A stretch of DNA of 64,000 nucleotides from Nitrosomonas sp. (GTDB lineage: Bacteria; Pseudomonadota; Gammaproteobacteria; Burkholderiales; Nitrosomonadaceae): assembly GCF_022842015.1 (NCBI RefSeq), contig NZ_JALHQJ010000003.1, positions 4,557 through 68,556 on the forward strand. The letters run 5' to 3'. A model generated the notes under the pieces. That model saw only the letters and a list, made by a program, of their open reading frames with translations. It had not been told where the DNA came from and did no database searches. The first letter of the stretch is position 1. Every line of letters starts with the position of its first letter. The position numbers and the translations under genes were made by a program. Shown here piece after piece: positions 9,594-39,148 of the stretch.

Positions 9594-10640
9594 ATGTCAC
9601 TCGCCATACTGTATAGCCGCGCGCTTTCCGGTATTCAAGCACCGTTGGTGACAGTGGAAACGCACATCGCCAACGGCTTGCCCAGCTTCACCATCGTCGG
9701 CCTTCCCGATACCGAAGTTAAAGAAAGTAAAGACCGCGTCAGAGCGGCGCTGCAAAATGCACAATTCAAAATCCCTGCGCAACGCATCACCATCAATCTA
9801 GCTCCTGCGGACTTACCCAAAGAGAGCGGACGGTTTGACTTACCCATAGCATTAGGAATACTCGCCGCAACCGGGCAAATTCCCAAAGATAAACTGGACC
9901 AATATGAATGGGCTGGTGAACTGGCATTAACCGGAGAATTGCGCCCGATTCACGGCGCTCTGGCAATGACCTACAACGCATTACAATCTGGCCGCAGTTT
10001 TGTGCTGCCGGAACAAAATGCCGCTGAAGCCGCGCTAGTCAAAAAAGCCACGATCTACGCGGCCAAATCGTTACTACAAATCTGTGCGCATTTAACCGAA
10101 CGAGAAACCTTGCCCATTTTTTCAGGCGTAACCGAGGCCAGGAATGAAGACTCCACTTACCCGGATCTTGATGAAGTCAAAGGACAAACGCAAGCCAAAC
10201 GTGCGCTAGAAATTGCCGCCGCAGGTGGCCATAGTCTGCTAATGATTGGCCCGCCCGGTACCGGAAAATCCATGTTGGCGGCACGCTTCCCCGGTATTCT
10301 ACCGCCCATGACAGAGGTAGAGGCTCTCGAATCTGCAGCCATTCAATCACTTAGTTATGGTAGCTTCAATATTGAGAATTGGAAAAAACGGCCGTTCCGC
10401 TCACCGCACCATACGGCATCCGGTGTTGCTCTGGTCGGCGGCGGCAGCCACCCTCGCCCCGGTGAAATTTCACTGGCCTTGCACGGCGTGCTGTTTCTGG
10501 ACGAGCTGGCCGAATTCGACCGCAAAGTTTTGGAAGTGCTGCGCGAACCCCTGGAATCTGGAAAAATCACCATCTCACGTGCCGCACGTCAAGCAGAATT
10601 CCCGGCGCAATTTCAACTGATTGCCGCAATGAATCCGTGA
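9594..10640 (+). pseudogene. comM: ComM/YifB Mg-chelatase-like ATPase, 5' part interrupted by the integrated element
   Basis: [42 protein letters not shown]; ends abruptly at AAMNP with TGA formed at the junction; continues as CPCGYLG at 43851. Confidence 0.95.
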
Positions 10641-13549: not shown

Positions 13550-14278
13550 TTAAAGAATATGAGCTCCGGCCAATTCAAGTTTTTCTTTTTTCTTTTCCCA
13601 CATAGGATACTTCTCACTTAAAAAAGCAAAGAATTTTTTATCGTGGTTTTTATACCGCATATGGCAGAGCTCATGAACTATTACATAGTCAATACAGTCT
13701 TTTGAAACATGAATTAGTTTAGGATGTAAGACAATTTTTTCTTTACTGATAAAACTACCCCAACGCTTTTTCATATCACGCATTGATAGTATCGGCATTT
13801 GTTTATAGTCAAACCTCTCCTTCATTACATCAAAACGATCAGCAAAAACTTTCTCTCTTTTTTCTTTAAACCAGCTGGTCAACAACTTTTTAGTATATGT
13901 ACTATCTGCAACAGATTTAGTTGTCTGTACCAAAAGTACGCCACGTAGCAGCAACACCTTGTCTTCCAAACTTTGTTTAACAAGTAATTGGTGCTGGCGA
14001 CCCAGGTAGTAAAAACTCTCGCCCGACACATATTCTTTTGTATACGCTTTTCGTTGGTGCTTTCCAAAGAAATGAAGTTGTTTTTGAAGCCAATACCACT
14101 TACGTTTAAGAAACTGCTCTATTCTCTCGGGAGCAGTATCATGCGGACACTTAACACAAATTCGCATGTCAGGCGTAACGGTCAGACCAAGGGTTTTTCT
14201 ATCTTGTGGAATGAGGTCGTAGCAGTAAACAAATGAACCGAAAATAAATTCTTTTTGATTCTTATGAGAAGATTTCAT
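13550..14278 (-). CDS. YgjP/M48-like metallopeptidase associated with type I RM
   Basis: MKKRWGS and YVIVHELCH (HExxH); ATG at 14278 overlaps the hsdR 3' end. Confidence 0.85.
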   Translation of the reverse strand: MKSSHKNQKEFIFGSFVYCYDLIPQDRKTLGLTVTPDMRICVKCPHDTAPERIEQFLKRKWYWLQKQLHFFGKHQRKAYTKEYVSGESFYYLGRQHQLLVKQSLEDKVLLLRGVLLVQTTKSVADSTYTKKLLTSWFKEKREKVFADRFDVMKERFDYKQMPILSMRDMKKRWGSFISKEKIVLHPKLIHVSKDCIDYVIVHELCHMRYKNHDKKFFAFLSEKYPMWEKKKEKLELAGAHIL

Positions 14279-17200
14279 AATTATTTTCTGCAAGAGTGAG
14301 CGTGTTGTTTATAATCGCTCGCATATCCGCGTCAGACAAATCAACTCCTTTCTCTTTTTTCACAACGTCATACAGATAATCGTCGAGAGTGTTCATAATA
14401 CGACGCTTCACATCAAGATTTTTGTACCAATCAACAATCGCTTCAGCTTTCACAATACCGAATATATCAAGAGTAATCACAATAAACGCATCCTCAGCAA
14501 CATCAAACTTTTTGAAATCTTCTTTAAGGTTGCGATAGAAAATATCAGATCCTTTTATAGATTCAATGGCTCCAGGCAGAAACTCATCCTTTTTACTTAC
14601 AACATCATCACTTATCAATTTAAGCTGTTTGAGCGCCGCCACGTCAGCTAGTTTTCCGTCACGCATCTTCTTCAAGATCTCTGAAATCTTCTTAGAAAAT
14701 CGTTCATAGAATTCAGGATCAGAATCCAGCTTTTCAGAAATAGTCTTTTGGGTTTGGGCTGCAATTGCTTCAGCCTTCGATTTGTCAGAACCAAGCGATT
14801 CAATCGCTTCCTCAAACTGTTTGCGATCTGTAATATTTATCTGCTTTGTAAGCAACTCCACACCCATTGCATCAACGTATTTGTCCAAAATATTCACCAG
14901 GGATTGCTTGTACTCAGCAAGATCAACTCGATCTGCGTATTTCAAACTCGCTGTCTTGCGAAGTTCCATAAATTTCTTAAGTTCACGGGTATACATATCC
15001 AGGCTATCAAACTCATGTACAAAGTCCTGCAATACAAAACACTCATTCAGATTTCTAATAAATGCGTTGAGGGTTTTATAGAACACTTCACGAGTTGGAG
15101 CATCATCAAGTAGCTGTAAGAAAGCCTCATCATCAGATGTGCCCTTAATGGCTTTGAAAATGTCATGCAAAAGACTGTAGCTCTGTTCAAGTTCTTCTAT
15201 CTTTTCAGCAACATCAATAAGGGTTCCCTGTACATCGGCTTCATCATAATTACCGAAGAGCTTCATTGCAGTATCAATATTCTTGGCATTCTCAGAATAA
15301 TCAATGATATATCCCGCAGTCTTTGGCAATTTCTTGTTTTCATGGAGCCGATTTACACGAGCAATTGCTTGAAGTAGGTTGTGATCTTTCAGATCCTTGG
15401 CGAGATATAGAACCGTATTGCGTGGCGCATCAAAACCAGTGAGTAGCTTATCTACTACGATAATCACTTCAATACCGTCATCGTTGTATTTAAAGCTATC
15501 AATAACATCCTTTTCATATTTCGTCACACTGCTGTGATTTTTTCTGATTCCATCAAGATATTTCACAACCTCGGCTTTATGTGTGTTTGCTTCATCGCCG
15601 TCATCATGTTCATCAGAAACTACAACTGCAGTGCGTATATTCCCGCGTTCCTGAAAGAATTTTTGAAACAAAACCGCTGAGAACTTGGATGGCGCTACAA
15701 TCTGCGCCTTAAGACCAGTATCTTGAAAATGTTTAGTGAAATGTTTTTCGATATCGTAGCCAATCTCGACGATTCTCTGAGGATTATCCTTAATGACTTT
15801 TGTACCAATATATTTTTGAAGTTCTTTTTTCTGTTTATCATTTAGAGCTTCAATAATACGTTCGACATGGCGATCAATCTGCTCTTCATTCTGAACCAAG
15901 TCCACATACCGACCTTCATAGATGAGCGGGAGAATTATGTTATCTGCTAAAGCGTCATCAATCGTATATTTATCAATATAGCCGCCAAATTTCTTCCAAC
16001 TCTCCTTATCCTTCTTCATGAGTGGAGTACCAGTAAAGCCGATATAGCACGCATTTGGAATAATGCGATTCATCTCAAGACTTGCGATACCGCTTTGACT
16101 TCGATGCGCCTCATCAATGAGTACAAAAATATTTTGATCAGAATCGACAAAACCAGCTTTCTTTTTTGCAGCTGATTCAAACTTATCAATAATCGTGGTA
16201 ATAACACCGAGGTTTCGATCCTTAATGAGATCAAGAAGATTCTGACCGCTCGTTGCCTGAATAACTTCCTTCTTAAGATTACAGTTTTTAAAGGTATCTT
16301 TAATTTGTTTATCCAGATCCTTACGATCGGTTACGATAATGACTCGGGGATTACTAATGTGCGGATTCTCAATGAGAGCTTTCACAAACATCACCATGGT
16401 GAGCGATTTACCAGATCCTTGGGTGTGCCATACAAGCCCACCTTTGCGACGAGTAATACCAGATTCTGAAGTCTCAGTTTCATCGACTCGTTTAAGCATT
16501 TTGTGAATCGCAAAGTATTGCTGATAGCGTGATAGTTTCTTTACCCCTGCATCAAAAAGAATGTAGTTTTTGGTGAGATCTAAAAGTCGTGCAGGTTCAA
16601 ACAACGCCAAGATGCCCCGATCCTGTTCAGTAGGCAATCTTTGGGTTTTTTGTTTGTGCCCGTCAGTGTACCCATTGAGGTCTTTCAGTACCTTCTCATA
16701 TACGGCATCATCAATCTTTTTACCAATGAGTTCTTTTGCTCGCTCATTTATTTCTTCAAAGGTCATCTCTTTTTCTTTCCAGACCGCATAAAACTTATTT
16801 GGGGTACCAGTAGTGCCGTACTGAAATTCCTTACCATTGGAACCTACAAGAAGTTGAGTGTAGGTAAAAAGTTTTGGGCAAAACTCAGGCCCCTGATTCC
16901 TATTCATCTGATTGATTGCCTCAATGACTGCCACACTCGATTTCTTGTTCTCAATGGTGGCGAATGGAATACCATTCACAAAGCATTGAACATCAGGGCG
17001 GATGTTCTGCTTACCACTTGCTACAAACTCAGCAGTCACATGAAATACGTTGTTTTCTGGATACTCAAAATCAATGAATCGAAAATTCTTTGAAATGGTC
17101 TTTCCACCCGCGCGCACACGGATAGTTTTACCACCCGAGGTGGGCATAATGATGTTGTATATCTTTTGAGACGTATCAATGAGACCCTCGTACTGAATAT

Positions 17201-17450
17201 GCTCAAGTTCGTCCACCGCACCTTGGACATCCTTTTCACTAAACGTATAGCTTTCACCATCAACTTCGTACTCATTGATCTCCATGAGTTTCACACTGGC
17301 GATATTCGCCAAAATGAAATTACTTGTGTCACCACCACGTTCAAGTAGCGCCTCTTCTGCGGATATGTATTGATATCCCATCGCCAAAAGTAGCTCTAGT
17401 GCAGTGAGCTGTGATTGTTTGGCTTCATCGAAGTGTACTTTTTCTAGCAT
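14262..17450 (-). CDS. hsdR: Type I restriction endonuclease subunit R
   Basis: RPDVQCFVNGIPFATIENK nuclease motif, HTQGSGKS, DEAHRSQ, FTGTP, KLLTGFDAP. Confidence 0.95.
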   Translation of the reverse strand: MLEKVHFDEAKQSQLTALELLLAMGYQYISAEEALLERGGDTSNFILANIASVKLMEINEYEVDGESYTFSEKDVQGAVDELEHIQYEGLIDTSQKIYNIIMPTSGGKTIRVRAGGKTISKNFRFIDFEYPENNVFHVTAEFVASGKQNIRPDVQCFVNGIPFATIENKKSSVAVIEAINQMNRNQGPEFCPKLFTYTQLLVGSNGKEFQYGTTGTPNKFYAVWKEKEMTFEEINERAKELIGKKIDDAVYEKVLKDLNGYTDGHKQKTQRLPTEQDRGILALFEPARLLDLTKNYILFDAGVKKLSRYQQYFAIHKMLKRVDETETSESGITRRKGGLVWHTQGSGKSLTMVMFVKALIENPHISNPRVIIVTDRKDLDKQIKDTFKNCNLKKEVIQATSGQNLLDLIKDRNLGVITTIIDKFESAAKKKAGFVDSDQNIFVLIDEAHRSQSGIASLEMNRIIPNACYIGFTGTPLMKKDKESWKKFGGYIDKYTIDDALADNIILPLIYEGRYVDLVQNEEQIDRHVERIIEALNDKQKKELQKYIGTKVIKDNPQRIVEIGYDIEKHFTKHFQDTGLKAQIVAPSKFSAVLFQKFFQERGNIRTAVVVSDEHDDGDEANTHKAEVVKYLDGIRKNHSSVTKYEKDVIDSFKYNDDGIEVIIVVDKLLTGFDAPRNTVLYLAKDLKDHNLLQAIARVNRLHENKKLPKTAGYIIDYSENAKNIDTAMKLFGNYDEADVQGTLIDVAEKIEELEQSYSLLHDIFKAIKGTSDDEAFLQLLDDAPTREVFYKTLNAFIRNLNECFVLQDFVHEFDSLDMYTRELKKFMELRKTASLKYADRVDLAEYKQSLVNILDKYVDAMGVELLTKQINITDRKQFEEAIESLGSDKSKAEAIAAQTQKTISEKLDSDPEFYERFSKKISEILKKMRDGKLADVAALKQLKLISDDVVSKKDEFLPGAIESIKGSDIFYRNLKEDFKKFDVAEDAFIVITLDIFGIVKAEAIVDWYKNLDVKRRIMNTLDDYLYDVVKKEKGVDLSDADMRAIINNTLTLAENNYEIFS

Positions 17451-17456
17451 GATAGT

Positions 17457-18713
17457 TTATTTAGAAATTGATAATGATTCAGGTGTGGGGATCGCTCCAG
17501 TAACGAGTTTGTTGAGGAGATATTTCTTTTGGTCTTTAAGAATTGTTAGCTTTTGTTTAAGTCGATAAATTTCTTTGTCCGCAACGTCTAGAATTTCTGC
17601 GATTGCTGATTGTTCTTCAAATTCAGGTATTTTTATGTTTATTTTTCCTAATTCTCCAAGATATACACCCCCTTGAGCACCTCTACTTTCCCTTTGCTTC
17701 AACTGTTTCTGAAAATTGCTTGCTTGCATTAGTTGAAAAAAAAATTCTGGACTTTGATTTTTAAATCTTAGAATTCCAACACTACGTTGAAATGTATAAT
17801 TATTTTTATAATCTTTAGTTAAAGCTACTCTTCCAATAGACCCAACCAAGCAAAGTAGCAGATCCCCATTTTGTATACGATATGATTTATGAATTTGTTC
17901 AAATTCTGTCTGACTAATAAGTCTAGGATCATTATTAGTGATAACATTTCCATCGACAATATCTTTGGCACTAAGTAACGGAATACCATTTTTGACATTC
18001 ATGTGAGTTGCGTGGGTACCATCTTTTATTAAAGAAGTAATTTGAGTCAGTTTATAAATCTTCCATGGATTATTGAATCCCGGTAAGCGTGTCTTGCTTG
18101 TAAGCAATTCCTGCATCAAACCTTTTTTGATTTCTTTCTTAATTTCAATCTTTCGCTTCAAGCTTTTAATTGAGTGATCCCAGGCACCTAAAACTGCAGC
18201 GATCCTTTTTTGTTCAGAAATAGGTGGCAAATGGAGTTTAACTTTTTTTAAATCTCCAACATTTACATGCTCCATCGTAGAACCAGTTTTTATTCTTCTT
18301 ATCTGTCTTTTACCCTCTAGTGATCTAAAGTATTGCAAGAAGTATTCTGGCGAAGCAATTTGTTTTTTAAGTCTAGTGATAATTAATGCGTGACAGTTTG
18401 CTCCAACTAATTTAGGTGGAACAATTGTTGTTAAACCAACTTCACCAGTTTGAACTATAAGCAAATCTTTTTCCTTTAAAATTGACTTGCTATTTTTTGT
18501 ACTAAATTCTGGTGTTACTTTTTTTATACCATTAAAATTAAATCCAAAATCAGTGACGTTGTAACCTTGAACATAGGTAACCCCATTAGGTTCTTCAGTG
18601 TAGTTCTCTACCGCCTTACCAACAAATCCATTGGTCATAAGTTCACACGCGTCATTCATTGTGACTTCTTCCCATGTTTCAGGAATATTCTGTTGTTCCT
18701 GGTTAGTTTTCAT
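17457..18713 (-). CDS. hsdS: Type I RM specificity subunit S
   Basis: Two TRDs with conserved PPISEQKRIA and PEFEEQSAIA repeats, KKGLMQELLT. Confidence 0.92.
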   Translation of the reverse strand: MKTNQEQQNIPETWEEVTMNDACELMTNGFVGKAVENYTEEPNGVTYVQGYNVTDFGFNFNGIKKVTPEFSTKNSKSILKEKDLLIVQTGEVGLTTIVPPKLVGANCHALIITRLKKQIASPEYFLQYFRSLEGKRQIRRIKTGSTMEHVNVGDLKKVKLHLPPISEQKRIAAVLGAWDHSIKSLKRKIEIKKEIKKGLMQELLTSKTRLPGFNNPWKIYKLTQITSLIKDGTHATHMNVKNGIPLLSAKDIVDGNVITNNDPRLISQTEFEQIHKSYRIQNGDLLLCLVGSIGRVALTKDYKNNYTFQRSVGILRFKNQSPEFFFQLMQASNFQKQLKQRESRGAQGGVYLGELGKINIKIPEFEEQSAIAEILDVADKEIYRLKQKLTILKDQKKYLLNKLVTGAIPTPESLSISK

Positions 18714-20130
18714 AATTTCGCATTAAAGCTATTGATTCTTTCAGCTGAGAAAGAAAGCTCTTGTTTTTGTTCGCAGGATAGTGAATGCAGTTTCTTATAA
18801 ATGTTGGTAAGGTGACTTGATTTTGTTTTCCCTTTTCTGGATAAGTTTTTTTAAGTTTTAATTTTTGAACAAAAAACTGTTCATCAAATGCATTTATGCC
18901 AATAGTCTCTTTCTTTTCATCTTCTACTAATTTTTCGTTTACTTCATCCAGTAGTCTTTGGCGGAGAAAGTCATAAAGTTCATTATGGTAACTATCATCT
19001 AATATTCCAAAAACATCAAAGTTTACACTTGCGTAAGTAGAGTTTTTTTCATCAAATGGAATTACTTCAGTTTTTTCATCTTTATCATGTTTAACTACCT
19101 TAAAATTTCTAGATAAACATTTCTTGTCTATCATATAATTTGAGTGTGTTGCAAAAAAACAGATATTATTATCTGATGAAGTTAGTTTTATTAGCTCACT
19201 CAAAAAATATTCCTGGGCTTGTGGATGAAGATGTGTTTCCGGCTCGTCTAAAAGAATAAGTGAGTTTGAAAGTGAATTTACTTCTTTCTGTGCAGATATG
19301 TTAAGAAGAAATGAAATAAACTGTTTAAAGCCATCGCTTCTTTGACTTGTGGTTTTTGCCTTTTTATTTGAATCCTTTACATGAAAATTGATCCCATCAC
19401 CTGAAATATCGAAGGTTATTGTGATTGAATGATTTGGCCAAACTTTTCTTATAAGACTAGTAACTTGCTGTCCGAGTTTATCCCTCAGATCCTCTCGTTC
19501 AGTAGAATCTGTTGTTATTGTTTGTATGATGCTTTGTATTCTTTGTTTTGTATCATATCCACAAAGTTCAAAACATCTCTTAAGTGGAATAGAAATATTA
19601 TCTGGGTTACTAGCAAATTGAGACAGTAATATTTGGTTTGTTATCAAATATTTCTCAGCATATTTCCAGTATATTGTGTAATGAGTAGAGCTAAATATTT
19701 GATCTAGCAATAGCGGCTCTATTTGAGTTTTTATATTCTCATCTGTCAGATCGTTAAATGATATAGTTTTTACTAGTTGTAAATTAGGTAAACTATAATT
19801 CACTTTTAGAGTTACATTTTTTATATCATTATCTTTAATTTTGATATCTGTATACTTTTTTACAATGAGTTCTTTACAAACTATAACATCATCTTTTTCT
19901 TGAACATATTCGTACTCGACTTCAATAGGAAGATCTTTATCTTGAAAATCTGAAGCGGTGGGGATAACGTGCTCGTCTAAAAGAGCAAACGATTGCAATA
20001 TGCTACTTTTTCCAGCTTCATTAACTCCAATAAGTCCATACGTAAAAGTACCGTCAGAAACTTGGTTGATGTCAAATTTTACATTCTCAATACTTCTGTA
20101 ATTTTTTATAGTGATAGATTGTAGTTTCAT
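18703..20130 (-). CDS. ABC/AAA ATPase with unassigned C-terminal domain, embedded in the RM operon
   Basis: IKNYRSI, GVNEAGKS Walker A, SDGFKQF signature, LLDEPETHLHP, THSNYMI; C-terminal IRNCIHYP. Confidence 0.8.
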   Translation of the reverse strand: MKLQSITIKNYRSIENVKFDINQVSDGTFTYGLIGVNEAGKSSILQSFALLDEHVIPTASDFQDKDLPIEVEYEYVQEKDDVIVCKELIVKKYTDIKIKDNDIKNVTLKVNYSLPNLQLVKTISFNDLTDENIKTQIEPLLLDQIFSSTHYTIYWKYAEKYLITNQILLSQFASNPDNISIPLKRCFELCGYDTKQRIQSIIQTITTDSTEREDLRDKLGQQVTSLIRKVWPNHSITITFDISGDGINFHVKDSNKKAKTTSQRSDGFKQFISFLLNISAQKEVNSLSNSLILLDEPETHLHPQAQEYFLSELIKLTSSDNNICFFATHSNYMIDKKCLSRNFKVVKHDKDEKTEVIPFDEKNSTYASVNFDVFGILDDSYHNELYDFLRQRLLDEVNEKLVEDEKKETIGINAFDEQFFVQKLKLKKTYPEKGKQNQVTLPTFIRNCIHYPANKNKSFLSQLKESIALMRNYEN

Positions 20131-20134
20131 ATGT

Positions 20135-21643
20135 TTATTTAATACCTAGCTCCTTCAAGTATTCAGACATCTGCTTTTCTAGTTTTTGCAGCTCCGGCTC
20201 AAGTTCAGCAAGTTCCTTAAGATTCGCACTGATATCGACTGGCGTTTCCTCTTCAAAAGTATCAACGTAACGAGTGATATTAAGATTGAAATCATTCTCT
20301 TCTATTTCGGCAAGATCAACCGAGCGAGCAAATTTTTCTACATCCTTACGCTTGGTGTACGTACCGTAAATCTTCTCAATATGCTCATCGGTCAGAACGT
20401 TTTGTGCTTTTGCTGACTTAAACTCCTTGGATGCTTCGATAAAGAAGATATCTTTTTTCTTTTCGTTCGCCCCACCTTTCTCACGTGATCGATCAATGAC
20501 AAGAATTGCCACTGGAATACCTGTTGTTTGAAAAAGCCCTGCGGGTAGGCCAATAACTGCATCAATGATGTTTTCCTTGATCAGATGTTCACGAATCTTG
20601 CCTTCGACTCCACCACGAAAGAGTACGCCATGCGGAACAATGACTGCCACACGTCCAGTTTTTGGCTTTGCTACTTCGATCATGTGCGTAATGAAGGCAA
20701 AGTCGCCTTTGTCCTTTGGTGGAACTCCTCGCCAGAAGCGATTATATGAATCTGATTCAGCATGTTCTGCACCCCACTTTTTAAGCGAGAATGGGGGATT
20801 GGCTACAACAACATCAAAACGCATCAGCTGGTCATTTTCGACGAGAAGGGGATTATTGAGCGTATCGCCCCATTCAAGACGTGCCGAATCTTTTCCGTGA
20901 AGGAACATGTTCATGCGAGCGAGTTGGAAAGTTGAACCTGTTGATTCCTGACCATAGAGGGCGTAATTCTTTGAACCTTTCTTTTCAACTTCTTCACCAG
21001 CCAAAAGAAGGAGGCCGCCCGAGCCACAAGCTGGATCACAGATACGATCACCCTCCTTAGGTTCTGCAAGCATAGCGACCAGCTGAGCCACCGAACGAAC
21101 CGTGAAGAATTCACCTGCTTTTTTACCTGCATCGGCACCAAAGCGTTCAACCATGTACATATATGAGTTGCCGATGATATCGTCGCCCACATCCGAGAGG
21201 TCAATCTTTGCAAAATCCTGAATGAGATGGCGAAGCATCTTGTTACGTTGTGCCAACTTGCCAAGTACCGACTCAGAGTTGAAATCAACACCAAATACAC
21301 CTTCAAGCTTCTCACTGTTTGCATCTTCAATACGGCGCAGCGCTTTATTTATCTCATCTCCAATGTTGTCCTCTTCAATTTTGCTGTAGATATAATCGAA
21401 AGAAGATTTTGGGGGAAGATAAAAGCGATCAAGCTTCATCTTCTCCTCGATTCGTTTTTCATCACTTCCAAAGCGCGCCTTGTATTCATTGTGACGCTTC
21501 TTATTAAGATCACTCAGGTACTTAAAGAAAAGCATGGTGAGTGCATAGTCTTTATATACACCGCCATCAACACTACTTCGTGAGGAATCAGCGGCGGCCC
21601 AAAGAATTTTATTGAGTTCTTCCTGAGTGAATTTTTTAGTCAT
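20135..21643 (-). CDS. hsdM: Type I RM methyltransferase subunit M (m6A)
   Basis: EFFTVRSV, DPACGSGG, ANPPF, PHGVLFRG, NLNITRYV. Confidence 0.95.
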   Translation of the reverse strand: MTKKFTQEELNKILWAAADSSRSSVDGGVYKDYALTMLFFKYLSDLNKKRHNEYKARFGSDEKRIEEKMKLDRFYLPPKSSFDYIYSKIEEDNIGDEINKALRRIEDANSEKLEGVFGVDFNSESVLGKLAQRNKMLRHLIQDFAKIDLSDVGDDIIGNSYMYMVERFGADAGKKAGEFFTVRSVAQLVAMLAEPKEGDRICDPACGSGGLLLLAGEEVEKKGSKNYALYGQESTGSTFQLARMNMFLHGKDSARLEWGDTLNNPLLVENDQLMRFDVVVANPPFSLKKWGAEHAESDSYNRFWRGVPPKDKGDFAFITHMIEVAKPKTGRVAVIVPHGVLFRGGVEGKIREHLIKENIIDAVIGLPAGLFQTTGIPVAILVIDRSREKGGANEKKKDIFFIEASKEFKSAKAQNVLTDEHIEKIYGTYTKRKDVEKFARSVDLAEIEENDFNLNITRYVDTFEEETPVDISANLKELAELEPELQKLEKQMSEYLKELGIK

Positions 21644-22413: not shown

Positions 22414-23337
22414 CTATAAATTTGCAGTCTTTTCCATACTGCTATCTGTAGCCAAGCTTTCCAGATACAAACTGGCCGCCGAAGCCGCACTTGCTGCCGC
22501 AAAGATCGCTGTTTTGTGTTCTTTGAGCACTTGCAGCCAACTAGCAATGTATGCAGCATGATCTGATCTTGGATAGGTATTTATACCAAGCGTAGCGCAA
22601 AGAAACGAAGCGCCAAGCTCAGCAATCAACTCTTCCATAGCATAAGCACTTGATCCAAATCGTCCCGATAAATCACGTTTAAGTCGTGAAGGATGTCCAG
22701 ACCAGTGAACATGCTCATGGAAAAGCACGGCATAGTAGCCTTCTACCGATGATCCTGATTTAGTATCTCGAAACACTGATTGATTTGGCATATAGATACA
22801 ATCCAAAGCTGGACTGTAATAAGCGGTGTCACTGCCGTGGCGAATTTCACTTTGCAGGGAATTGATAAAACATACTGCCTTAGAGAATTTCTGGTGGTTT
22901 GCATCGTCAGACACTTCATTTGCCATCCAGCCATCAACCTGATCGCCATTAAACACATGAGAATAGCGAATTACGGCTCTCGCTTGATTTTGGGTATCGT
23001 CTTTTTCAACATCTTCATCCTCTTCCTTCCGTTGATAAAAAACGATAGTGGCTCCCTTTTCTCCCTGTCGCACTTGCGCTCCCAATGAATTCCATTGCAA
23101 ATACGAAGCCCAATATGAACTGGCGAATCCGGCTTTTCGCCTTGTAATCCACAGCGCTAACGCATTAATCCCTTGATACAGTTTTTTAGTTGCCGGATTG
23201 CGGGGAAGTCCAGCTTGCGCTTGTCTATGCCAAGGCATCTCGAAATCAGCCGCACCCGCTTCGATGGCACTGATTATTTCATTGGTGATCTGGGTATAGA
23301 TGTCAGCTTTTGAATTACCTAATATTTTCTGATGCAT
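22414..23337 (-). CDS. ardC: ArdC family antirestriction / ssDNA-binding protein
   Basis: MPWH..LPRNPATKKLYQGIN N-domain; zincin-like FHEHVHWSGH, YAMEELIAELG. Confidence 0.88.
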   Translation of the reverse strand: MHQKILGNSKADIYTQITNEIISAIEAGAADFEMPWHRQAQAGLPRNPATKKLYQGINALALWITRRKAGFASSYWASYLQWNSLGAQVRQGEKGATIVFYQRKEEDEDVEKDDTQNQARAVIRYSHVFNGDQVDGWMANEVSDDANHQKFSKAVCFINSLQSEIRHGSDTAYYSPALDCIYMPNQSVFRDTKSGSSVEGYYAVLFHEHVHWSGHPSRLKRDLSGRFGSSAYAMEELIAELGASFLCATLGINTYPRSDHAAYIASWLQVLKEHKTAIFAAASAASAASLYLESLATDSSMEKTANL

Positions 23338-30589: not shown

Positions 30590-33169
30590 CTATAAGGTAG
30601 AGAACTTCCTAATTTTTTTTCTAATTTCTTCAAATCGCATTATTTCATCATTAAGATTCTGTGGTTCAGGATTCTTGTAAGCATATTTATCGCTATGGGT
30701 ATGTCCTTCCATATAGCGACAACATTGTGCAAAACTATCTTGTAGTTCTTGAATTAAAATCTGGTCAAAGTTCACTTCTGATAAGGAATCAATACTAACT
30801 CTATCCTCAAATGGTCTTACTGTATTATTAAAGAGATCATAGATAACTAGTACCTCATAAGAAGTTCTTAATGCAGAAAAGCCTTGGGCTAAATACCTGT
30901 ATCTTTCTTCCGGAGGACAATCGTCTTTATTGCTATTCCTGAAGTAATTCTTTGCAGGCTCAGCATTTCTGTATTTCTTCTGATATATTGGAGCGTTTCC
31001 GAACCAAATAAAACCAGGCTTATTGTTTCTACTTTCAATCCAATGACATAATACTTCGTCTTCTTTTGATTTAGATAAAAGATTAGATACGAAAACCAAA
31101 TCGTGTGAGAAGACAATTACTTGCTTGGCTGATGATTCGGCAATTAATCTCCTTGCTATTTCAGCTTTTCTTGCATCATCTAAAGAAGTAACAGGGTCGT
31201 CAAATATGATTCCTCTGTTCACTTCTGATAATTGCATTTCTGCTATAAAGTCAGCAATAGCAATAACTTTCTGCTCTCCTTCACTCAATACAGCATTCGG
31301 GTTATTACCTCGTAATTTTAGCTGTCTATACGATCTACCTGCTGTGCCTGTATGATTTATCTCGATACCAAAATTTCCATTTAGTTTTTGACACTCTTCA
31401 TTAAAAGTTTCGACATATTTCTGATTGAAATACTTATCTGATAGAGCTTTCTCAGTATCGGTTATTTTTCTTTTGGCAAAATTTGCACTACCTGCTTTTT
31501 TTATCCATATTTGATTATCAACGAAAGCCTCAAATTTTGAAAAATGAGTATTAAATTTCTCTTTGTGTTCTAAGAATGTTTTTTCCTTCAGCAATTTTTC
31601 CAATTTATTGCTTTGTTCATCATCTTTGAACAATTTAATTGCATCGCCAAGCGCTGTTTCAATCGTTGTGTGCTCTTCAACGCTAATTTTTACTTCAATT
31701 CGATTATTTGCTGTTTTATTTTGAATATCGGAAATGATGCTTTCAGATAGCGTTTTTTGTTCAGTGAGCCTTTGTTTTAATGAGTTCAAATGCTGGGGAT
31801 ATTTTTCAGTAAGCCAAGCTGAGAGTGTATTTTCTATAGGAAACAACTCAAAAACTAATTTCTCAAAAGCTTGCCTGATTTTATCAAGCTCTTCCTGTGC
31901 TTTTTTTGCATTCTCTTCCGCGACACTTTTTATAAAAGTCCAATAACTTGCAATCAATTTCTCAGCATCTTCTGAAAGTGGCTGATGGCAAAATAAACAG
32001 TTATCTCCGTTTTCAGGATAAATAGCTTTTTCAAATTTTTGATTTATTGCGAATGCTTCGGCGCTTACAATAAAATCTTTCCACTCTTCAGTGCCAATAC
32101 CTTCAATTTTATCCGTTTTAAAATTTTCAATTCCCTCGGCTTTAGCAACATCTTCTTTTTTCTTGCAATCGTTTATTACTTTTTTTACCTTTTCAAGTGT
32201 TTCGGTTGAGAAATATCGGTTAAGTGTTTCAAGTGCCTTTTTATTTTCTCCTAATAATTTTTTAATGTTCTCAAGATCTTTTATTTCCTTATCCTTACTT
32301 CTTGAAGCCAGAAGCAGTTCGTCATATTGCTTCTGAATTTCCGCTTTTTTGGTTTTATCTTCTTCTGAAAAAGGAGTGTATTTTTTCAAATCTTCAATTT
32401 TGGTTGAGGCAGAAAGTTTCTCAATTGCTGTTTTAATTTCAGATTCGCCATCAAATAAAAATAAAAGACTATCTAATGTATGCCCAATCCTCTTATCACT
32501 AATATTAGCATTTAGTTTTTGTTCAATTTTTGTAATAGCATCGGTGTATTCAGCAAAAAAACTTAATCCTGCTGGCCGGAACTCAAATTCATTTTTGTTC
32601 TCAAGTTGCTTTAATAATCCCTTTCCGTCAAAAACAGAGAACTGTTCAAACTCTACTGAATTCTCATTTGCAGGATATTCCAATGGAATGTCTGAATTCT
32701 GAGAAATGAAAGTAAATTTTGCTTTAATGGATTTGTGACCGCTATTGATATGAACATTGGGCAAAATTTCTTCTGGAGCTTTTGAGTAAAATACTTTTTT
32801 GAGCAATCTAACATAACCTGATTTTCCGGAACCGTTTGCACCGTAGATGATAGTCAGATTAGGGCTGAATTCAATTGTTTGGTTTTCAGTTAAAGCGTTT
32901 ACACCTTCAACACTTTCAAGTCTTGAAAGTAATAAATCAAGTTTATGATTACCTGAATTTCCGGCATTGTAATTGATTGTAATTACAGGCTTCTCGGTCT
33001 CATTCTTTAGCTTTAATTCTTCAAGGAGACAGGAATACGAAGTATCGATGTCATTTAGAGAAATGGCATTCCCTGACAAAATCTTCTGAGCGATGTATTT
33101 TGCCCAATACGGGAGATTATTGGCAAAATTATTTATTTCAGATTCAAGTGTTAAGTGCTTAGAAGTCAT
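30590..33169 (-). CDS. RloC-like ABC-ATPase with zinc hook and HEPN-like C-terminus
   Basis: GANGSGKS, CLFC hook in a long coiled coil, LSEGEQK, FDDPVTSLD, RYMEGH (Rx4H). Confidence 0.7.
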   Translation of the reverse strand: MTSKHLTLESEINNFANNLPYWAKYIAQKILSGNAISLNDIDTSYSCLLEELKLKNETEKPVITINYNAGNSGNHKLDLLLSRLESVEGVNALTENQTIEFSPNLTIIYGANGSGKSGYVRLLKKVFYSKAPEEILPNVHINSGHKSIKAKFTFISQNSDIPLEYPANENSVEFEQFSVFDGKGLLKQLENKNEFEFRPAGLSFFAEYTDAITKIEQKLNANISDKRIGHTLDSLLFLFDGESEIKTAIEKLSASTKIEDLKKYTPFSEEDKTKKAEIQKQYDELLLASRSKDKEIKDLENIKKLLGENKKALETLNRYFSTETLEKVKKVINDCKKKEDVAKAEGIENFKTDKIEGIGTEEWKDFIVSAEAFAINQKFEKAIYPENGDNCLFCHQPLSEDAEKLIASYWTFIKSVAEENAKKAQEELDKIRQAFEKLVFELFPIENTLSAWLTEKYPQHLNSLKQRLTEQKTLSESIISDIQNKTANNRIEVKISVEEHTTIETALGDAIKLFKDDEQSNKLEKLLKEKTFLEHKEKFNTHFSKFEAFVDNQIWIKKAGSANFAKRKITDTEKALSDKYFNQKYVETFNEECQKLNGNFGIEINHTGTAGRSYRQLKLRGNNPNAVLSEGEQKVIAIADFIAEMQLSEVNRGIIFDDPVTSLDDARKAEIARRLIAESSAKQVIVFSHDLVFVSNLLSKSKEDEVLCHWIESRNNKPGFIWFGNAPIYQKKYRNAEPAKNYFRNSNKDDCPPEERYRYLAQGFSALRTSYEVLVIYDLFNNTVRPFEDRVSIDSLSEVNFDQILIQELQDSFAQCCRYMEGHTHSDKYAYKNPEPQNLNDEIMRFEEIRKKIRKFSTL

Positions 33170-33992: not shown

Positions 33993-35183
33993 GTGCATTA
34001 CCAACCCATTTCATTTTTTGGAAGAACCAACGCTCGAAATTCTCACCGCCACTTTGGTATCAAAAATAATGACCGTTTTTCCCATATCTATGTAATTGGC
34101 CGTACCGGGGCTGGAAAAACTACCTTATTGGAAACTCTGGCTACACAGGATATACAAAATGGCAAGGGCTTATGCGTCATTGATCCACATGGCGATCTGG
34201 CTGAAAGATTAGTATTAAGTGTTCCAGAACAGAGGACTAATGACCTTTGTTATGTGAACGTACCCGATATACAACAACCTTATGGCTATAACCCACTAAG
34301 AAAGGTACACCCTTCCCGTATACCCTTGGCCGTGTCGGGACTGATGGAAGCTTTCAAAAAACTTTGGGACGAGGCCTGGGGCGTTCGCATGGAGCATATA
34401 CTTAGAAATACGCTCTATGCCTTGATTGAAGCCGGTGACGCCAAGCTACCCGATATTCTTGGTATGATTGCTGATAAAAACTATCGCGCAACCATCATTC
34501 CGAAAGTTAAAAATGAGCAAGTGCGTAGTTTCTGGCTGGAAGAATTCACTGCCTATAATCCCCGCTATCGGCAGGAAATGATCGCTCCTATTCAAAATAA
34601 AGTCGGTGCATTTCTGGCCGATCCCAAGCTAAAACGCATCTTTACCGCAGCCCCCGTTAACCTCCAATTTCGATCAATTATGGATGAAGGGAAGATTCTG
34701 ATTGTGAATCTAGCCAAAGGTCGTCTTGGTGAGGATAGTGCCTCACTGTTTGGTGCGCTACTCGTAACCACTCTTGGTTTAGCGGCTATGAGTCGTGGTG
34801 ATATGCCGGAGTCAGAGCGCCGCGATTTTTTCATATACATCGATGAATTCCAGAGTTTCACTACGCTTTCCATCGCTAATATGGTTTCGGAGCTGAGAAA
34901 GTATCGTATTGGCCTTGTTTTGGCGCACCAACACTTCTATCAATTGGAACCCGATGTTAGGCATGCGGTATTAGCCAATGCCGGTACACTGATAGCGTTT
35001 CGGGTGGGGCCAGAAGATGCACCGCTGATTGCTCGGGAATTTGCACCAGTTTTCAACGTCACCGATCTTATCAGTCTACCAAACCACCATATCTACCTAA
35101 AACTCATGATCGACGGCGCTCCTAGCCAGCCATTTAGTGCCACCACTTTACATCCCCATGATCTTAATCATTTAAGTTATTAA
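33993..35183 (+). CDS. VirD4/TrwB/HerA-like P-loop ATPase
   Basis: HIYVIGRTGAGKT, VIDPHGDL, YIDEFQSF, ELRKYRIGLVLAHQ. Confidence 0.8.
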   Translation: MHYQPISFFGRTNARNSHRHFGIKNNDRFSHIYVIGRTGAGKTTLLETLATQDIQNGKGLCVIDPHGDLAERLVLSVPEQRTNDLCYVNVPDIQQPYGYNPLRKVHPSRIPLAVSGLMEAFKKLWDEAWGVRMEHILRNTLYALIEAGDAKLPDILGMIADKNYRATIIPKVKNEQVRSFWLEEFTAYNPRYRQEMIAPIQNKVGAFLADPKLKRIFTAAPVNLQFRSIMDEGKILIVNLAKGRLGEDSASLFGALLVTTLGLAAMSRGDMPESERRDFFIYIDEFQSFTTLSIANMVSELRKYRIGLVLAHQHFYQLEPDVRHAVLANAGTLIAFRVGPEDAPLIAREFAPVFNVTDLISLPNHHIYLKLMIDGAPSQPFSATTLHPHDLNHLSY

Positions 35184-35257
35184 CCCTTCTATCCGCTAAT
35201 ACAAAACGTAGATACTTTAGTTACTTATCTTATTCATGAGAAAAGAGGAGAAATCAT

Positions 35258-35638
35258 ATGAAGTTATTGCTACGTCGTAATCAAAAAACCGGCATGCTCG
35301 GAAAAATCATCTTTATCATCGCCGTCCGCGCGGAACTATCCGATGAAGAAAAAGCCGATATCAAAAAATACAAACTTGGCGATACTATGCTCTATGAACG
35401 CTCCAAAATCGCTGATCCCGGTAGCGGACTTCTTGGCATGGCTTCACGCTTAGCTTTCAGAATGATTAATCTGTCAATCTCAGTTAATGATTTAGAGAAG
35501 GGAAAAGAGGTTGAGTGCAAAGATGTGGTGGAAATGCTGGCCGTTGAAGAACAAATAAAAGAAGCCGCCCATACCTTTCGGACAGTCCTTGGAGCCGCTA
35601 GTACTTTTGGTGGTGAGGAAATTATCGAGATCAATTAA
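35258..35638 (+). CDS. Hypothetical protein
   Basis: 126 aa, SD-like GAGGAG upstream, abuts the 926-aa gene. Confidence 0.65.
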   Translation: MKLLLRRNQKTGMLGKIIFIIAVRAELSDEEKADIKKYKLGDTMLYERSKIADPGSGLLGMASRLAFRMINLSISVNDLEKGKEVECKDVVEMLAVEEQIKEAAHTFRTVLGAASTFGGEEIIEIN

Positions 35639-38419
35639 GTGTCTCAAAACTGGCTTTCCTGGCTCAAACCTTCGCCTAAACAATTAGAACAGGCGGAGAT
35701 GCTGACTATGTTGCAGCAGTTACAGCAGCATAGTCAGTGGGCATCGCCTCTCAATACCGAAGACAAAGTTAACAACTTTATAATTGATGTCATTGCTGAT
35801 GCTTGCAGTGAGCATGGCACTCTACCCGGCATACCTTTAGGCGAAGCGCTATTCTACGCCATCAAAACTCTTTTAAAAGATGATTCAATTATCGGAGAGT
35901 TACCAACTGAATCAGAAATTTGCCATCTAAGTATTGAAGAAGGTGTGCGTCTCCGAGCCGCTTTTAGACGCTATGAGCGGTTTCTAGCAACCCCAGATCG
36001 ATTATTAGCTATCTGGCAGGCAAAGCTCATATGGCTTTTTAGAGGTCTGCTTGGATATTTTCCCGAGTCCGCGTTTATTGATGTTAATGAAAATGGACAA
36101 GGTGCTGATGATTCCGTTGTTTTCCCCAAAGCTCAGGCTTTTGATCTTTGCGACAACCTTCCGGAAGTCATTCAGCGCATCATCGCGACTTTATTTGATG
36201 AGGATGTTGTTGAGGCACAGCTTTTTGCGCCAGAGCGAGACATATTTAACCGGAATTTGTTAAAAGCATCAGGCTATTCACCTGATGCTACCTTTAACCA
36301 TGATCCCAAAATAATATTACCCACAGAAAGCAAACTTAGAGAACCTGCGGCGTTGGTCGATGCGTATTTAGGCGGTACGCCATTTCAGGAACTGTTATAC
36401 AGCCCATTACCGTTTGCGATTCCGTTTCCGGCCCGATTTGAACACACGCACATTGTTGGCGGGACTGGGCACGGCAAAACCCAGCTTATGCAATTCTTGA
36501 TTCATCACGATATTGTGCGCTCACAAGATGATGGACGCTCAATTGTGGTGATTGATAGCCAAGGTGATTTGATCAATACCATTTCAAAGCTTGGTTATTT
36601 TAGCAATCCGGCACTAGCCGAACGTTTCGTACTCGTTGATCCAAACGATATTGAGCATCCGGTATGTCTAAACATGTTTGATTTCAATCGGGACAGACTA
36701 AGCGGTTATGCACCGGTTGACCGGGAAAAGATTTTAAATGCCACCATTGAGCTTTATGAGTATTTCTTTGGTGCTCTTCTTGGCGCTGAACTTACCCAAC
36801 GCCAAGGACTAATATTCCGCTACTTGGCCCGGTTATTGATTGAGATTCCCGATGCCAATATTCATACACTCAGGGAATTGATGGAAGATGGGGCAAAATT
36901 CCGGCCCTATATGGAGAAACTAACCGGTACGGCCAGAAGTTTCTTTGTCACGCAGTTTTTTGATAAAAAATTTGGTGAGACCAAAAAGCAAATTTTGACC
37001 CGTCTTTGGGGTGTGCTATCGAATTCATCCTTGGAGCGGATGTTTTCCCATACTCGCAATCGGATAGACATCTTTGAGCTCCTAAATCAAGGCAAGATTA
37101 TTCTTATTAATACCGCCAAGGACTTGTTAGGGCAAGACGGTGCAGCCATTTTCGGGAGATTCTTTATTGCCCTGATCGCTCAAGCCTCGATTCAACGGGC
37201 CGCCATGCCACCGCATACCCGTCGATCAGCTTTTGTTTATATTGACGAAGCGCAAGACTATTTTGATGACAATATTTCGCATCTGCTTAATCAAGCTAGA
37301 AAGTATCGAGTAGGACTGATCTTTGCTCATCAAAACATGGATCAATTAACTGCCAATCTTCGTTCCAGTGTACTGGCTTCCACCACCATTAAATTTGCCG
37401 GTGGTTTAAGTGCCAAGGATGCCGGAGTTCTTGATTCTGAATTCCGTACCGATGCCGATTTCTTGCTAGGTATGAAGAAAGGGAAAAATCATACCGAGTT
37501 TGCTTGTTATGTGAAGAACTACACTAATAAAGCGCTGACAGTATCGATTCCACTCGGGTTTGTGGAAGATAAACCCAAGATCACAGCCTTTCAGTATGAA
37601 GAGCTTTTGGATCGGAATCGTGAGTTATACAGTGAACCGCCACTATTGCCTGAAGAAATAGCGTTTCCTGAGCAGAGCAAACCAGAGTATAAAGGGCTAC
37701 AACCAGCCAAACCCAAAGAAACAACACCAGAAAAGCCATCACAGCCAGTGGCTACACCAGCTGAGCAAGAAAAATCCGCTTCACATGTACAACAGTCAAT
37801 TATCACGCCTATTGAATCGGAAGTACCTACTACACCAGAAGCCACCGCTAAAACAACCGCTGCGCCTAAAAAAGCGAAACCCATACCACCAGAGGATATT
37901 CCTCAAGCTGGCCGTGGTGGGCGACAACATAAGTATCTGCAACATTTAATCAAGCAATTGGCCGAAGAACGCGGATTCCGTGCCACTATTGAAGAAACCA
38001 TATTGGATGGCGCTGGACGGGTCGATGTATCGCTTATTCGTGAGAAAATACGAGTAGCTTGCCAAGTTTCGGTCACCACTACCAAAGATTGGGAACTTGG
38101 TGGTATCGAGAAGTGTTTTGCGGCTGGCTATACCGAGGTAGTGCTGGTATCGGGGACGGAACGGCATATCAAGAAATTATCCAAGTTTGTGGAAGAAAAC
38201 CTTGATCCCAAGGATCAGGGACGTGTCCGGTATATAATTCCTGATGGCGTTATTGAGTTTCTTGATAGTCTTGGGAAATTTACTCCGACTGAACAAGTGG
38301 TGCGTGGATACAAAGTACGCACGGTGCAACAGGCTACTGATTCAGAAGATGCGGCTTCGAGGCGGAAAGCAATTTCGGAGGTTATTGCTAGGTCGTTGCA
38401 GAAGGAGAGGGAGAAATAA
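35639..38419 (+). CDS. Large VirD4/TraD-like ATPase with Pro-rich linker and nuclease-like C-terminal domain
   Basis: HTHIVGGTGHGKT, VIDSQGDL, YIDEAQDY, QARKYRVGL; C-terminal GRVDVSL..VACQVSV. Confidence 0.75.
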   Translation: MSQNWLSWLKPSPKQLEQAEMLTMLQQLQQHSQWASPLNTEDKVNNFIIDVIADACSEHGTLPGIPLGEALFYAIKTLLKDDSIIGELPTESEICHLSIEEGVRLRAAFRRYERFLATPDRLLAIWQAKLIWLFRGLLGYFPESAFIDVNENGQGADDSVVFPKAQAFDLCDNLPEVIQRIIATLFDEDVVEAQLFAPERDIFNRNLLKASGYSPDATFNHDPKIILPTESKLREPAALVDAYLGGTPFQELLYSPLPFAIPFPARFEHTHIVGGTGHGKTQLMQFLIHHDIVRSQDDGRSIVVIDSQGDLINTISKLGYFSNPALAERFVLVDPNDIEHPVCLNMFDFNRDRLSGYAPVDREKILNATIELYEYFFGALLGAELTQRQGLIFRYLARLLIEIPDANIHTLRELMEDGAKFRPYMEKLTGTARSFFVTQFFDKKFGETKKQILTRLWGVLSNSSLERMFSHTRNRIDIFELLNQGKIILINTAKDLLGQDGAAIFGRFFIALIAQASIQRAAMPPHTRRSAFVYIDEAQDYFDDNISHLLNQARKYRVGLIFAHQNMDQLTANLRSSVLASTTIKFAGGLSAKDAGVLDSEFRTDADFLLGMKKGKNHTEFACYVKNYTNKALTVSIPLGFVEDKPKITAFQYEELLDRNRELYSEPPLLPEEIAFPEQSKPEYKGLQPAKPKETTPEKPSQPVATPAEQEKSASHVQQSIITPIESEVPTTPEATAKTTAAPKKAKPIPPEDIPQAGRGGRQHKYLQHLIKQLAEERGFRATIEETILDGAGRVDVSLIREKIRVACQVSVTTTKDWELGGIEKCFAAGYTEVVLVSGTERHIKKLSKFVEENLDPKDQGRVRYIIPDGVIEFLDSLGKFTPTEQVVRGYKVRTVQQATDSEDAASRRKAISEVIARSLQKEREK

Positions 38420-38645: not shown

Positions 38646-38713
38646 GTAATTGAAATTTTCTGTTTTTCTTTTTATTATGACAATGTAATTATTTAACTGA
38701 AAAAGGGCACTAT

Positions 38714-39148
38714 ATGAAAAATCTTTTTGATAGAAATCTTTCGTTAATAGAATCCGAAGTAGGTAATAATCTACTGTTGTATGATACTGTTAAAGAAGTA
38801 TTCTTTGTACTTAATCCACCAACAAAATTTATATGGCTGTTGTATTCCGAGGAGGATTCAATTACGCCAATCATCCAAATGATCAAAAAGTATTATAAGC
38901 ACCCTGCAAGAGAAAAAGAAATTATGGATGATGTTATCCAGATGGTAGATGAGCTAAAAAAAAATAAAATCCTTATCCCTGCAGATAATACTAAATCATC
39001 TCATTCCCAGTCCTTAAACTTAAGTACTTCTATTGAAGAACAATACAGCAAACCAACCCTAAGAAGTCTTACAAAAGAATGGATGCTGGAGTACCATCCA
39101 GACTCATATTACAGGGGTTCCCATTTTAGTGACCTGTGGGATTCTTGA
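38714..39148 (+). CDS. PqqD/RRE-family protein with C-terminal precursor-like tail
   Basis: Residues 1-89 PqqD-like (LLLYD..FFVLNPPTKFIWLL..DDVIQMVDELKKNKIL); Ser/Thr linker; YSKPTL at 111-116; aromatic-rich tail. Confidence 0.75.
   Translation: MKNLFDRNLSLIESEVGNNLLLYDTVKEVFFVLNPPTKFIWLLYSEEDSITPIIQMIKKYYKHPAREKEIMDDVIQMVDELKKNKILIPADNTKSSHSQSLNLSTSIEEQYSKPTLRSLTKEWMLEYHPDSYYRGSHFSDLWDS

Follow-up and report, generated by a model that had tools for sequence, protein, structure and literature searches.

A PqqD-like protein with a leader-type motif and a conserved aromatic tail as a candidate self-presenting substrate of radical SAM enzymes in Nitrosomonas sp.

Recognition element (RRE) domains in the pathways for ribosomally made peptides with post-translational modifications (RiPPs) are known as free chaperones or as fusions to enzymes, and they read a leader on a separate peptide. 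Can an RRE also be joined in one chain to its own recognition sequence and to the core that is modified, which would be a third layout? This question is raised by a 64,000-nucleotide (nt) stretch of a Nitrosomonas sp. contig (NZ_JALHQJ010000003.1, positions 4,557 to 68,556; hereafter the window), in which a gene for a PqqD-like protein (gene A) is followed by genes for a kinase-like protein (B) and two radical S-adenosylmethionine (SAM) enzymes (C and D). A sequence-only reading of the window had proposed that RRE, leader and core sit in one chain in the gene A protein. Based on homology searches, structure predictions and comparison of gene neighborhoods, we favor this proposal with moderate confidence: gene A would encode a single-chain RRE-leader-core substrate of RiPP type that presents itself to its enzymes.

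The open reading frame (ORF) of gene A (38714-39148, plus strand, stop codon included) starts with ATG and encodes 144 amino acids (aa). Pfam PqqD (PF05402) matched residues 22-87 above its gathering cut-off (E=1e-5, 26.2 bits vs 23.4), which bears out the PqqD-like domain recognized in the sequence-only reading; the matches to PqqD-type chaperone models in an NCBIfam scan of the protein (PqqD, WgkC, ScmD, lasso PqqD) were all below threshold. The motif YSKPTL at residues 111-116 (39044-39061) and the aromatic tail behind it were found in sequence and position as that reading had described them, the C-terminal tail being RSLTKEWMLEYHPDSYYRGSHFSDLWDS. The parts of the protein and the neighboring genes are listed in Table 1.

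An exhaustive phmmer search of 1.84 billion protein representatives returned 26 proteins at E <= 0.001, 24 of which (query included) span 136-171 aa and can be aligned from end to end. The remaining two were P0025, an 80-aa RRE without a tail that is described below, and P0012, a 979-aa protein that we rejected as a family member, the match being a spurious one on a repeat protein. Word-index homology searches with A and with B returned essentially the query alone, and a rerun with alignment profile A1 added two proteins. Full-length homologs occur in AT-rich as well as in GC-rich backgrounds. The family was not found in 24 genomes of the same genus, nor in 16 others that each represent a different taxonomic family of the same order (of these, G035 gave PqqD-only matches), and degenerate DNA patterns for NHP-x7-F(S/G)DTWxP yielded chance matches alone in genome and metagenome contigs.

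The family proteins share one layout, which consists of the RRE, a variable linker, the block Y-E-x-P-x-(I/L/V)-x-x-(Y/L)-(T/S), the block (E)-W-(M/L)-x-x-N-H-P, about seven variable residues, F-(S/G)-D-T-W, and 0-13 more residues. Mean pairwise identity was 24% for the RRE, 10% for the linker, 29% for the YxxP block, 43% for EWMxxNHP and 62% for FSDTW, the best conserved part of these proteins. Among the 24 homologs, Tyr and Pro of the YxxP block are present in 20 and 22, respectively; Trp, His and Pro of EWMxxNHP in 20, 22 and 23; and Asp and Trp of FSDTW in 23 and 22. Trp, His, Phe and Tyr abound in the tail; Cys is absent from 21/24 tails and conserved at no position. Conservation of the tail had been set beforehand as a test, and about 24 full-length homologs keep it, most strictly in FSDTW. 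We regard the FSDLWDS block of gene A as the likeliest modified core.

Two details of the sequence-only reading had to be revised. Among its candidate cross-link sites, YYR and HFS proved to be loosely conserved, whereas W123, (N)H128-P129 and F138-S-D-T-W142 (gene A numbering) are the conserved tail positions. Further, the linker is Ser/Thr-rich in gene A (38% of residues 90-110) but not as a feature of the family, in which the homolog mean is 20%. Because this richness is not conserved, the proposed phosphorylation of linker Ser/Thr residues is unsupported.

AlphaFold2 (AF2) modeled the gene A protein from alignment A1 with a mean predicted local distance difference test score (pLDDT) of 86 and a predicted template-modeling score (pTM) of 0.79. 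The RRE elements are strands 12-16, 19-24 and 29-33 followed by helices 35-43, 51-60 and 67-83, and this winged-helix order of three strands and then three helices was seen in the models of two members. The linker has block-mean pLDDT values of 70-75 and a short strand at 107-110. Behind it, a strand at 116-120 lies within the 111-120 block (mean pLDDT 97), followed by helix 121-127 (pLDDT about 90), helix 129-138 (about 64) and a disordered C-terminus, with block means of 64 (131-140) and 49 (141-144) and values below 50 for residues 140-143. The model of P0017, which is only 24% identical to the gene A protein, has a matching topology, with a strand at 123-127, helices 128-134 and 136-144, and a disordered end (148-153, pLDDT below 50).

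The top Foldseek matches in the PDB were the lasso B1 RREs 5v1v, 5v1u and 6jx3 (template-modeling score 0.73-0.82, normalized to the target), all of which were solved with YxxP leaders. YxxP in lasso systems, and a wider W/Y/LxxP/L/I group, are RRE recognition sequences that are bound as a beta-strand on beta-3 (PMC12710340). Structure prediction had been named as a check on whether YSKPTL docks onto the RRE of its own chain, and in two distant members the YxxP segment is a confident predicted strand on the RRE fold. The segment may be bound in the alpha-3/beta-3 groove, either of its own RRE or of that of another chain.

A relative in which the parts are separate was found in locus L034, where the tail-less P0025 is encoded (34% identical to gene A by phmmer; 32.5% over A residues 8-87 by blastx). 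After a gap, its gene is followed by a 59-aa ORF (2263-2442), MEDIMKDKEFNDPQNGKSANEKPRPEYEPPRIITYTSEQILEEIGPAQACSPSPCVFTP, which contains the motif stretch EYEPPRIITYTSE and then a Cys-containing core; the family motif YExPxIxxYTxE is present on this peptide. The next gene encodes a radical SAM enzyme whose best match in the window is C. A hidden Markov model (HMM) of the family tails aligned kYetPkireYtkeW with EYEPPRIITYTSEQ and scored 10.2 bits for the whole peptide, while none of 44,314 small ORFs of the window's own genome reached 10.2 bits or matched the motif as a regular expression. Judged by its sequence, L034 is a split version of the RRE-motif fusion. In this neighboring lineage, an RRE of the same type thus reads the same motif on a separate peptide, which is evidence of the Rosetta-stone kind that the YxxP block of the fused proteins is a real recognition sequence and the part downstream of it the substrate.

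The split RiPP-like cluster of L034 (1265-3053) comprises a SipW/S26-like peptidase, the discrete RRE, the 59-aa precursor and the radical SAM enzyme. The precursor has the leader motif YEPPRIITYT and the end ACSPSPCVFTP, and the radical SAM enzyme has an N-terminal extension of about 95 aa. A PorU-like type IX secretion sortase is encoded on the same contig.

With the orthology of the genes checked by tblastn, the order A-B-C-D was found in the window, L006/L007 (P0004), L017 (P0005), the GC-rich L031 (P0017) and L035/L036 (P0018). In L015 (P0006), the contig breaks off within C, after A-B, so that B stands between A and C in six distinct loci. L010 (P0013) has A-C-D without B, and in L011/L012 (P0011) A is directly followed by C and then the contig end. 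As far as the contigs reach, gene A is always directly 5' of the same radical SAM genes (C/D orthologs), with B between them in the six loci. In the window, A and B overlap by 20 nt, B and C by 4 nt and C and D by 16 nt, D and a following aldo/keto reductase gene are 2 nt apart, and the GC content of the cassette is 29-36% vs 44% for the genome.

The absence of a separate precursor ORF had also been set beforehand as a test, and none was found in the window, in its own genome, or conserved across the homologous loci. Within the 295-nt gap upstream of gene A there is no small ORF that looks plausible, and the genome has no second copy of the gene A tail. When all 15-120-aa ORFs of eleven homolog loci and of 8 kb of the window (twelve sequences in total) were compared with one another, similarity was seen inside large genes only and not in flanks or gaps.

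The radical SAM enzymes differ in their cysteines. In C, the CxxxCxxC cysteines (motif beginning at residues 18-33) are the only ones conserved among six homologs (the window copy and its orthologs in L007, L010, L017, L031 and L035), and therefore C would have no auxiliary Fe-S clusters; the best HMM matches of C are nonetheless SPASM enzymes (AhbD, MftC, ScmF). D has eight conserved cysteines in its SPASM region, a full SPASM set, and the 48-85 residues ahead of its radical SAM core are variable in length and poorly conserved. Since C and D leave no room for an RRE, the only RRE of the cassette is that of A. The best family scores of D were 285 bits for anSME, 203 for DynA, 189 for DarE and 156 for GrrM/OscB.

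Tail conservation, the lack of a precursor ORF, the AF2 strand, the lasso B1 fold and the split relative in L034 support the arrangement of RRE, leader and core in one chain, and A is probably the substrate of C, D and B encoded beside it. We envisage that the YxxP segment would add a strand to the RRE, in the simplest case that of its own chain, with a swap between two chains as a possible variant. The compact A module could then dock on C and D, both of which are without an RRE, and present its flexible FSDTW end for radical chemistry, in which W123 and H128 may be modified as well. D would most likely form aromatic C-C, C-N or C-O cross-links or oxidize C-H bonds, because its nearest families cross-link aromatics or oxidize C-beta-H and because the tail is Cys-free and rich in Trp, His, Phe and Tyr; F-S-D and W-x-P of the A tail presumably fit the aromatic-x-x pattern of three-residue cyclophanes. 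C, without auxiliary clusters, would perform a second step. Where B is present, it might finally phosphorylate the C-terminal Ser, as the kinases of lasso precursors do.

B matched NCBIfam HprK_rel_A with E=1.5e-8 but at 34 bits, below the cut-off of 200. Pfam Hpr_kinase_C (PF07475) matched four of five proteins (B and four homologs; best E=4.5e-5), a profile of the five matched HPr(Ser) kinase 3tqf in the PDB (E=7.6e-4), and the B homologs in L015, L035 and L036 have weak ScmC matches in precomputed Pfam. H166, G181, G186, K187, T189, D204 and D205 are invariant among the five, which we take to be the HPr-kinase C-domain pattern, H..G.SG.GK(S/T)T...DD. B was present in 6/6 loci in which A ends in Ser (WDS in four, SPGCS, GGRS) and absent in 2/2 confirmed loci in which it does not (L010, L011/L012); for the P0018 locus, with a Ser-ending A, B was predicted beforehand and then found. 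In lasso clusters, HPr-kinase homologs phosphorylate the precursor at its C-terminal Ser (PMC8498205). The correlation between a Ser end and B is suggestive, and the C-terminal Ser of A is a better candidate for a kinase target than the linker. Ser139 was also considered as a target and was rejected, since P0004 and P0006, whose loci contain B, have Gly at this position.

Several observations weigh against a self-presenting substrate. The alignments behind the AF2 models were small and overlapping (25 and 12 sequences), and residues 121-130, a well-packed predicted helix (pLDDT about 90), fit a folded structural extension equally well as a leader. Most homolog contigs are short, so that a distant precursor gene is possible for some of them. 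No copy of the cassette contains a protease or exporter gene, which is unusual for a RiPP. As to the kinase step, the correlation of Ser ends with B comes from few, partly related clades, and L009 is a possible exception, with a 33-aa fragment after a Gly-ending A that resembles the B N-terminus (the match is not significant). Alternatively, A could be a discrete RRE that acts in trans, as discrete PqqD proteins normally do, with a folded C-terminal extension that stabilizes the domain or binds the radical SAM partners and with its true precursor elsewhere or missed, as many of the homologs come from short contigs. Some 21% of PF05402 proteins exceed the length of a discrete RRE without having another Pfam domain (PMC12710340), and residues 116-130 of the AF2 model are well ordered. 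We nevertheless consider a trans-acting RRE unlikely, for the predicted binding strand is A's own YxxP, and in L034 the motif is on the substrate peptide and not on the RRE. There is no conserved small ORF in the homologous loci, the cassette moves as four genes between unrelated flanks, and the best conserved block is predicted to be disordered, as would be the case for a substrate or a short linear motif.

Since conserved disordered termini are often docking motifs, the FSDTW end might also remain unmodified and recruit or regulate the radical SAM enzymes or the kinase, or serve as an autoinhibitory pseudo-substrate, in which case the enzymes would act on a non-peptide or a host or phage target. 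This would go together with the defense genes beside the cassette in all three loci with long flanks and with weak matches of C and D to prokaryotic viperin models. However, with 55-60 bits the viperin matches do not rise above the level that is generic for radical SAM proteins, the nearest families of D are peptide or protein maturases (anSME, DynA, DarE, cyclophane synthases), and an RRE with YxxP is the signature of peptide-substrate presentation; we deem an unmodified docking end quite improbable. Short motifs do arise by chance, and the word-index search was without homologs, so that motif and aromatic tail could be fortuitous in an AT-rich ORF, or the ORF no real gene. This explanation is refuted by full-length homologs in AT-rich and GC-rich backgrounds, in which the tail is better conserved than the domain and the gene order is kept, and its probability is negligible.

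How does a fused substrate of this kind relate to known systems? The lasso B1 RREs (TbiB1, 5v1v/5v1u; 6jx3) resemble A in fold and in recognition motif, YxxP followed by a hydrophobic residue, but in A the motif shares the chain with the RRE, and the partners are two radical SAM enzymes instead of a B2 protease and a lasso cyclase; neither a B2 leader peptidase nor a C macrolactam synthetase is among the cassette genes of the window, L006, L017, L031 and L035. With the kinases of paeninodin-type lasso clusters (HPr-rel-A/ScmC), B shares the HPrK C-domain pattern, weak HMM matches and the Ser-ending A in six B loci, whereas it scores far below the family cut-offs (HprK_rel_A 34 vs 200) and the cassette is without a nucleotidyltransferase and without lasso machinery; the kinase role of B is a predicted one. 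The four-part make-up of a PqqD-like protein, an HPrK-like/ScmC-like protein and two radical SAM enzymes is that of SynChlorMet (ScmC/D/E/F, Haft), yet the scores stay well below the cut-offs (ScmD 15.3 vs 100, ScmF 93.9 vs 400, ScmE 70.8 vs 400), the ScmD model has 84 positions and no tail, C of the cassette is without auxiliary clusters, and D resembles anSME. The literature searched yielded no paper on the SCM cassette.

For pyrroloquinoline quinone (PQQ) biosynthesis, A scored 17 bits vs a cut-off of 46 for TIGR03859, and no cassette gene matched the PqqB or PqqC families. MftA of the mycofactocin pathway ends in a Val-Tyr core, whereas the A tail ends in WDS, and the MftC model TIGR03962 gave 93.8 bits vs 265. 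D scored 285 bits vs 349 for the anSME model TIGR03942. The anSME substrate motif is C/S-x-P/A-x-R; a sulfatase-type motif in the A tail was rejected, as the family has E-x-P-x-I-R, with position 112 mostly Glu and the Arg offset by one. Along with anSME, the darobactin/dynobactin maturases (DarE, DynA) and the three-residue cyclophane synthases are the nearest families of D, again with scores below the cut-offs (DynA 202.7 vs 450, DarE 189.2 vs 650); the substrates of DarE and DynA, unlike the proposed one of the cassette, are short separate peptides, and no RRE takes part. In being Cys-free and rich in Trp, His, Phe and Tyr, the A tail resembles the substrates of aromatic cross-linking, while the core Cys that sactipeptide and ranthipeptide precursors require is not provided by the A tails, the split peptide of L034 being the one with a Cys-containing core. 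In borosins (OphMA) and plant BURP-domain cyclases the core is fused to the catalytic enzyme, and in QhpC/QhpD a whole protein is the radical SAM substrate. Borosins and BURP-domain proteins likewise carry the core as the C-terminal end of a larger folded protein that aids its own processing, but the fused part is catalytic there, whereas in A it would be a recognition element only, with catalysis by separate enzymes. No fusion of an RRE with the sequence that it recognizes and with the core turned up in the literature searched, RRE-Finder papers included. On sequence grounds, the cassette would work like an RRE-dependent radical SAM RiPP pathway and does not belong to the lasso, PQQ, mycofactocin, anSME or darobactin systems.

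If the proposed fusion is real, it would account for some clusters with an RRE and maturases in which a precursor seems to be missing, and it would provide a simple rule for genome mining, namely to inspect the C-terminus of over-long PqqD proteins. It would also be of use as a compact, portable scaffold on which engineered cores are presented to radical SAM enzymes. That a conserved Cys-free W/H/F tail is combined with an anSME/DynA-like enzyme and with a radical SAM enzyme devoid of auxiliary clusters points to uncharacterized chemistry.

Table 1. Positions of the gene A parts, the neighboring genes and the disrupted gene in the window
Feature	Position	Strand	Remarks
Sigma-70-like promoter match, TTGAAA-17-TATTAT	38650..38678	+	AT-rich gap upstream of gene A; weak evidence
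Gene A, RRE/PqqD-like domain	38714..38980	+	Pfam PF05402 at residues 22-87; AF2; PDB fold matches
Gene A, variable linker, residues 90-110	38981..39043	+	10% mean pairwise identity, length varies; pLDDT 70-75
Gene A, recognition-sequence-like motif YSKPTLRSLT, residues 111-120	39044..39073	+	Family consensus YExPx(I/L/V)xx(Y/L)(T/S)
Gene A, conserved block KEWMLEYHPD, residues 121-130	39074..39103	+	Consensus (E)W(M/L)xxNHP; helix predicted to pack on the domain
Gene A, C-terminal block FSDLWDS, residues 138-144	39125..39145	+	Consensus F(S/G)DTW; highest identity; predicted disordered
Gene B, HPr-kinase C-domain-like/ScmC-like P-loop protein, 328 aa	39129..40115	+	Start codon uncertain
Gene C, radical SAM enzyme, 321 aa	40112..41077	+	SPASM-like C-terminal half without auxiliary-cluster cysteines
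Gene D, anSME/DynA/DarE-like radical SAM/SPASM enzyme, 463 aa	41062..42453	+	No RRE
Aldo/keto reductase, 277 aa	42456..43289	+	2 nt after D; PRK10376-like, 245 bits, below cut-off
comM/yifB-type gene, N-terminal part, 348 aa	9594-10640		Left of the island
comM/yifB-type gene, C-terminal part, 164 aa	43818-44312		Right of the island

In the window, the cassette lies at the right end of an island of about 33 kb, which interrupts a comM/yifB-type Mg-chelatase-like gene and encodes two large serine recombinases, RadC and two coupling-protein-like ATPases; no relaxase or mating-pair genes were seen among the window proteins scanned. The four-gene cassette was found between unrelated flanks, which suggests that it is a mobile accessory module. 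In the three loci with long flanks (the window, L006 and L035), defense genes adjoin it each time. The island of the window contains (14262-21643, 22414-23337 and 30590-33169) a type I restriction-modification system (HsdR, HsdS, HsdM) with an inserted AAA_15/AAA_21 ATPase, an ArdC-like anti-restriction/metallopeptidase protein and a PDC-S06 ATPase (E=1e-124). In L006 (4090-8345), the cassette is followed by a PDC-S06 ATPase (1079 bits), a PD-(D/E)xK-type nuclease and a SoFic-like gene, and in L035 (6365-15464) it has a phage-type integrase on one side and McrBC on the other. The cassette is not modeled in PADLOC: A gave no match, B matched VakA with E=0.005, and the matches of C and D were those to pVip mentioned above.

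A role of the cassette in defense is possible. Its repeated proximity to defense genes, together with the lack of a protease and an exporter, raises the possibility of an intracellular, immunity-related function: since neither gene is part of the cassette, the product may stay in the cell, as a modified protein or as a peptide freed by a host protease. In its strongest form, A-B-C-D would be a self-contained mobile defense-island system. Instead of giving rise to an exported natural product, A would receive cross-links or a cofactor inside the cell, plus phosphate in some clades, and the resulting protein or peptide would act against phages or other mobile elements. While we think that this form is doubtful, it would, if true, make RiPP-like modification an intracellular immune effector whose substrate carries its own recognition element.

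Some further observations concern the surroundings of the cassette. An S24/S26 peptidase is encoded upstream in both L031 and L034; it was rejected as a shared leader peptidase because the two have only a 21-residue motif in common (E=0.003), and since none was called beside A in the window, L006 and L035 either, it would not belong to the core cassette. The number of sigma-70-like sites in the region upstream of gene A was no higher than in shuffled controls. The aldo/keto reductase gene was found only in the window copy and is absent from L006, L031 and L035; as a speculation, its product could reduce a carbonyl intermediate. A large serine recombinase gene (10613-12175, minus strand) overlaps the left island junction, and directly upstream of the cassette (33993-38419) lie genes for two HerA/TraD-like ATPases (mad8-like in PADLOC) with a gene for a 126-aa protein between them.

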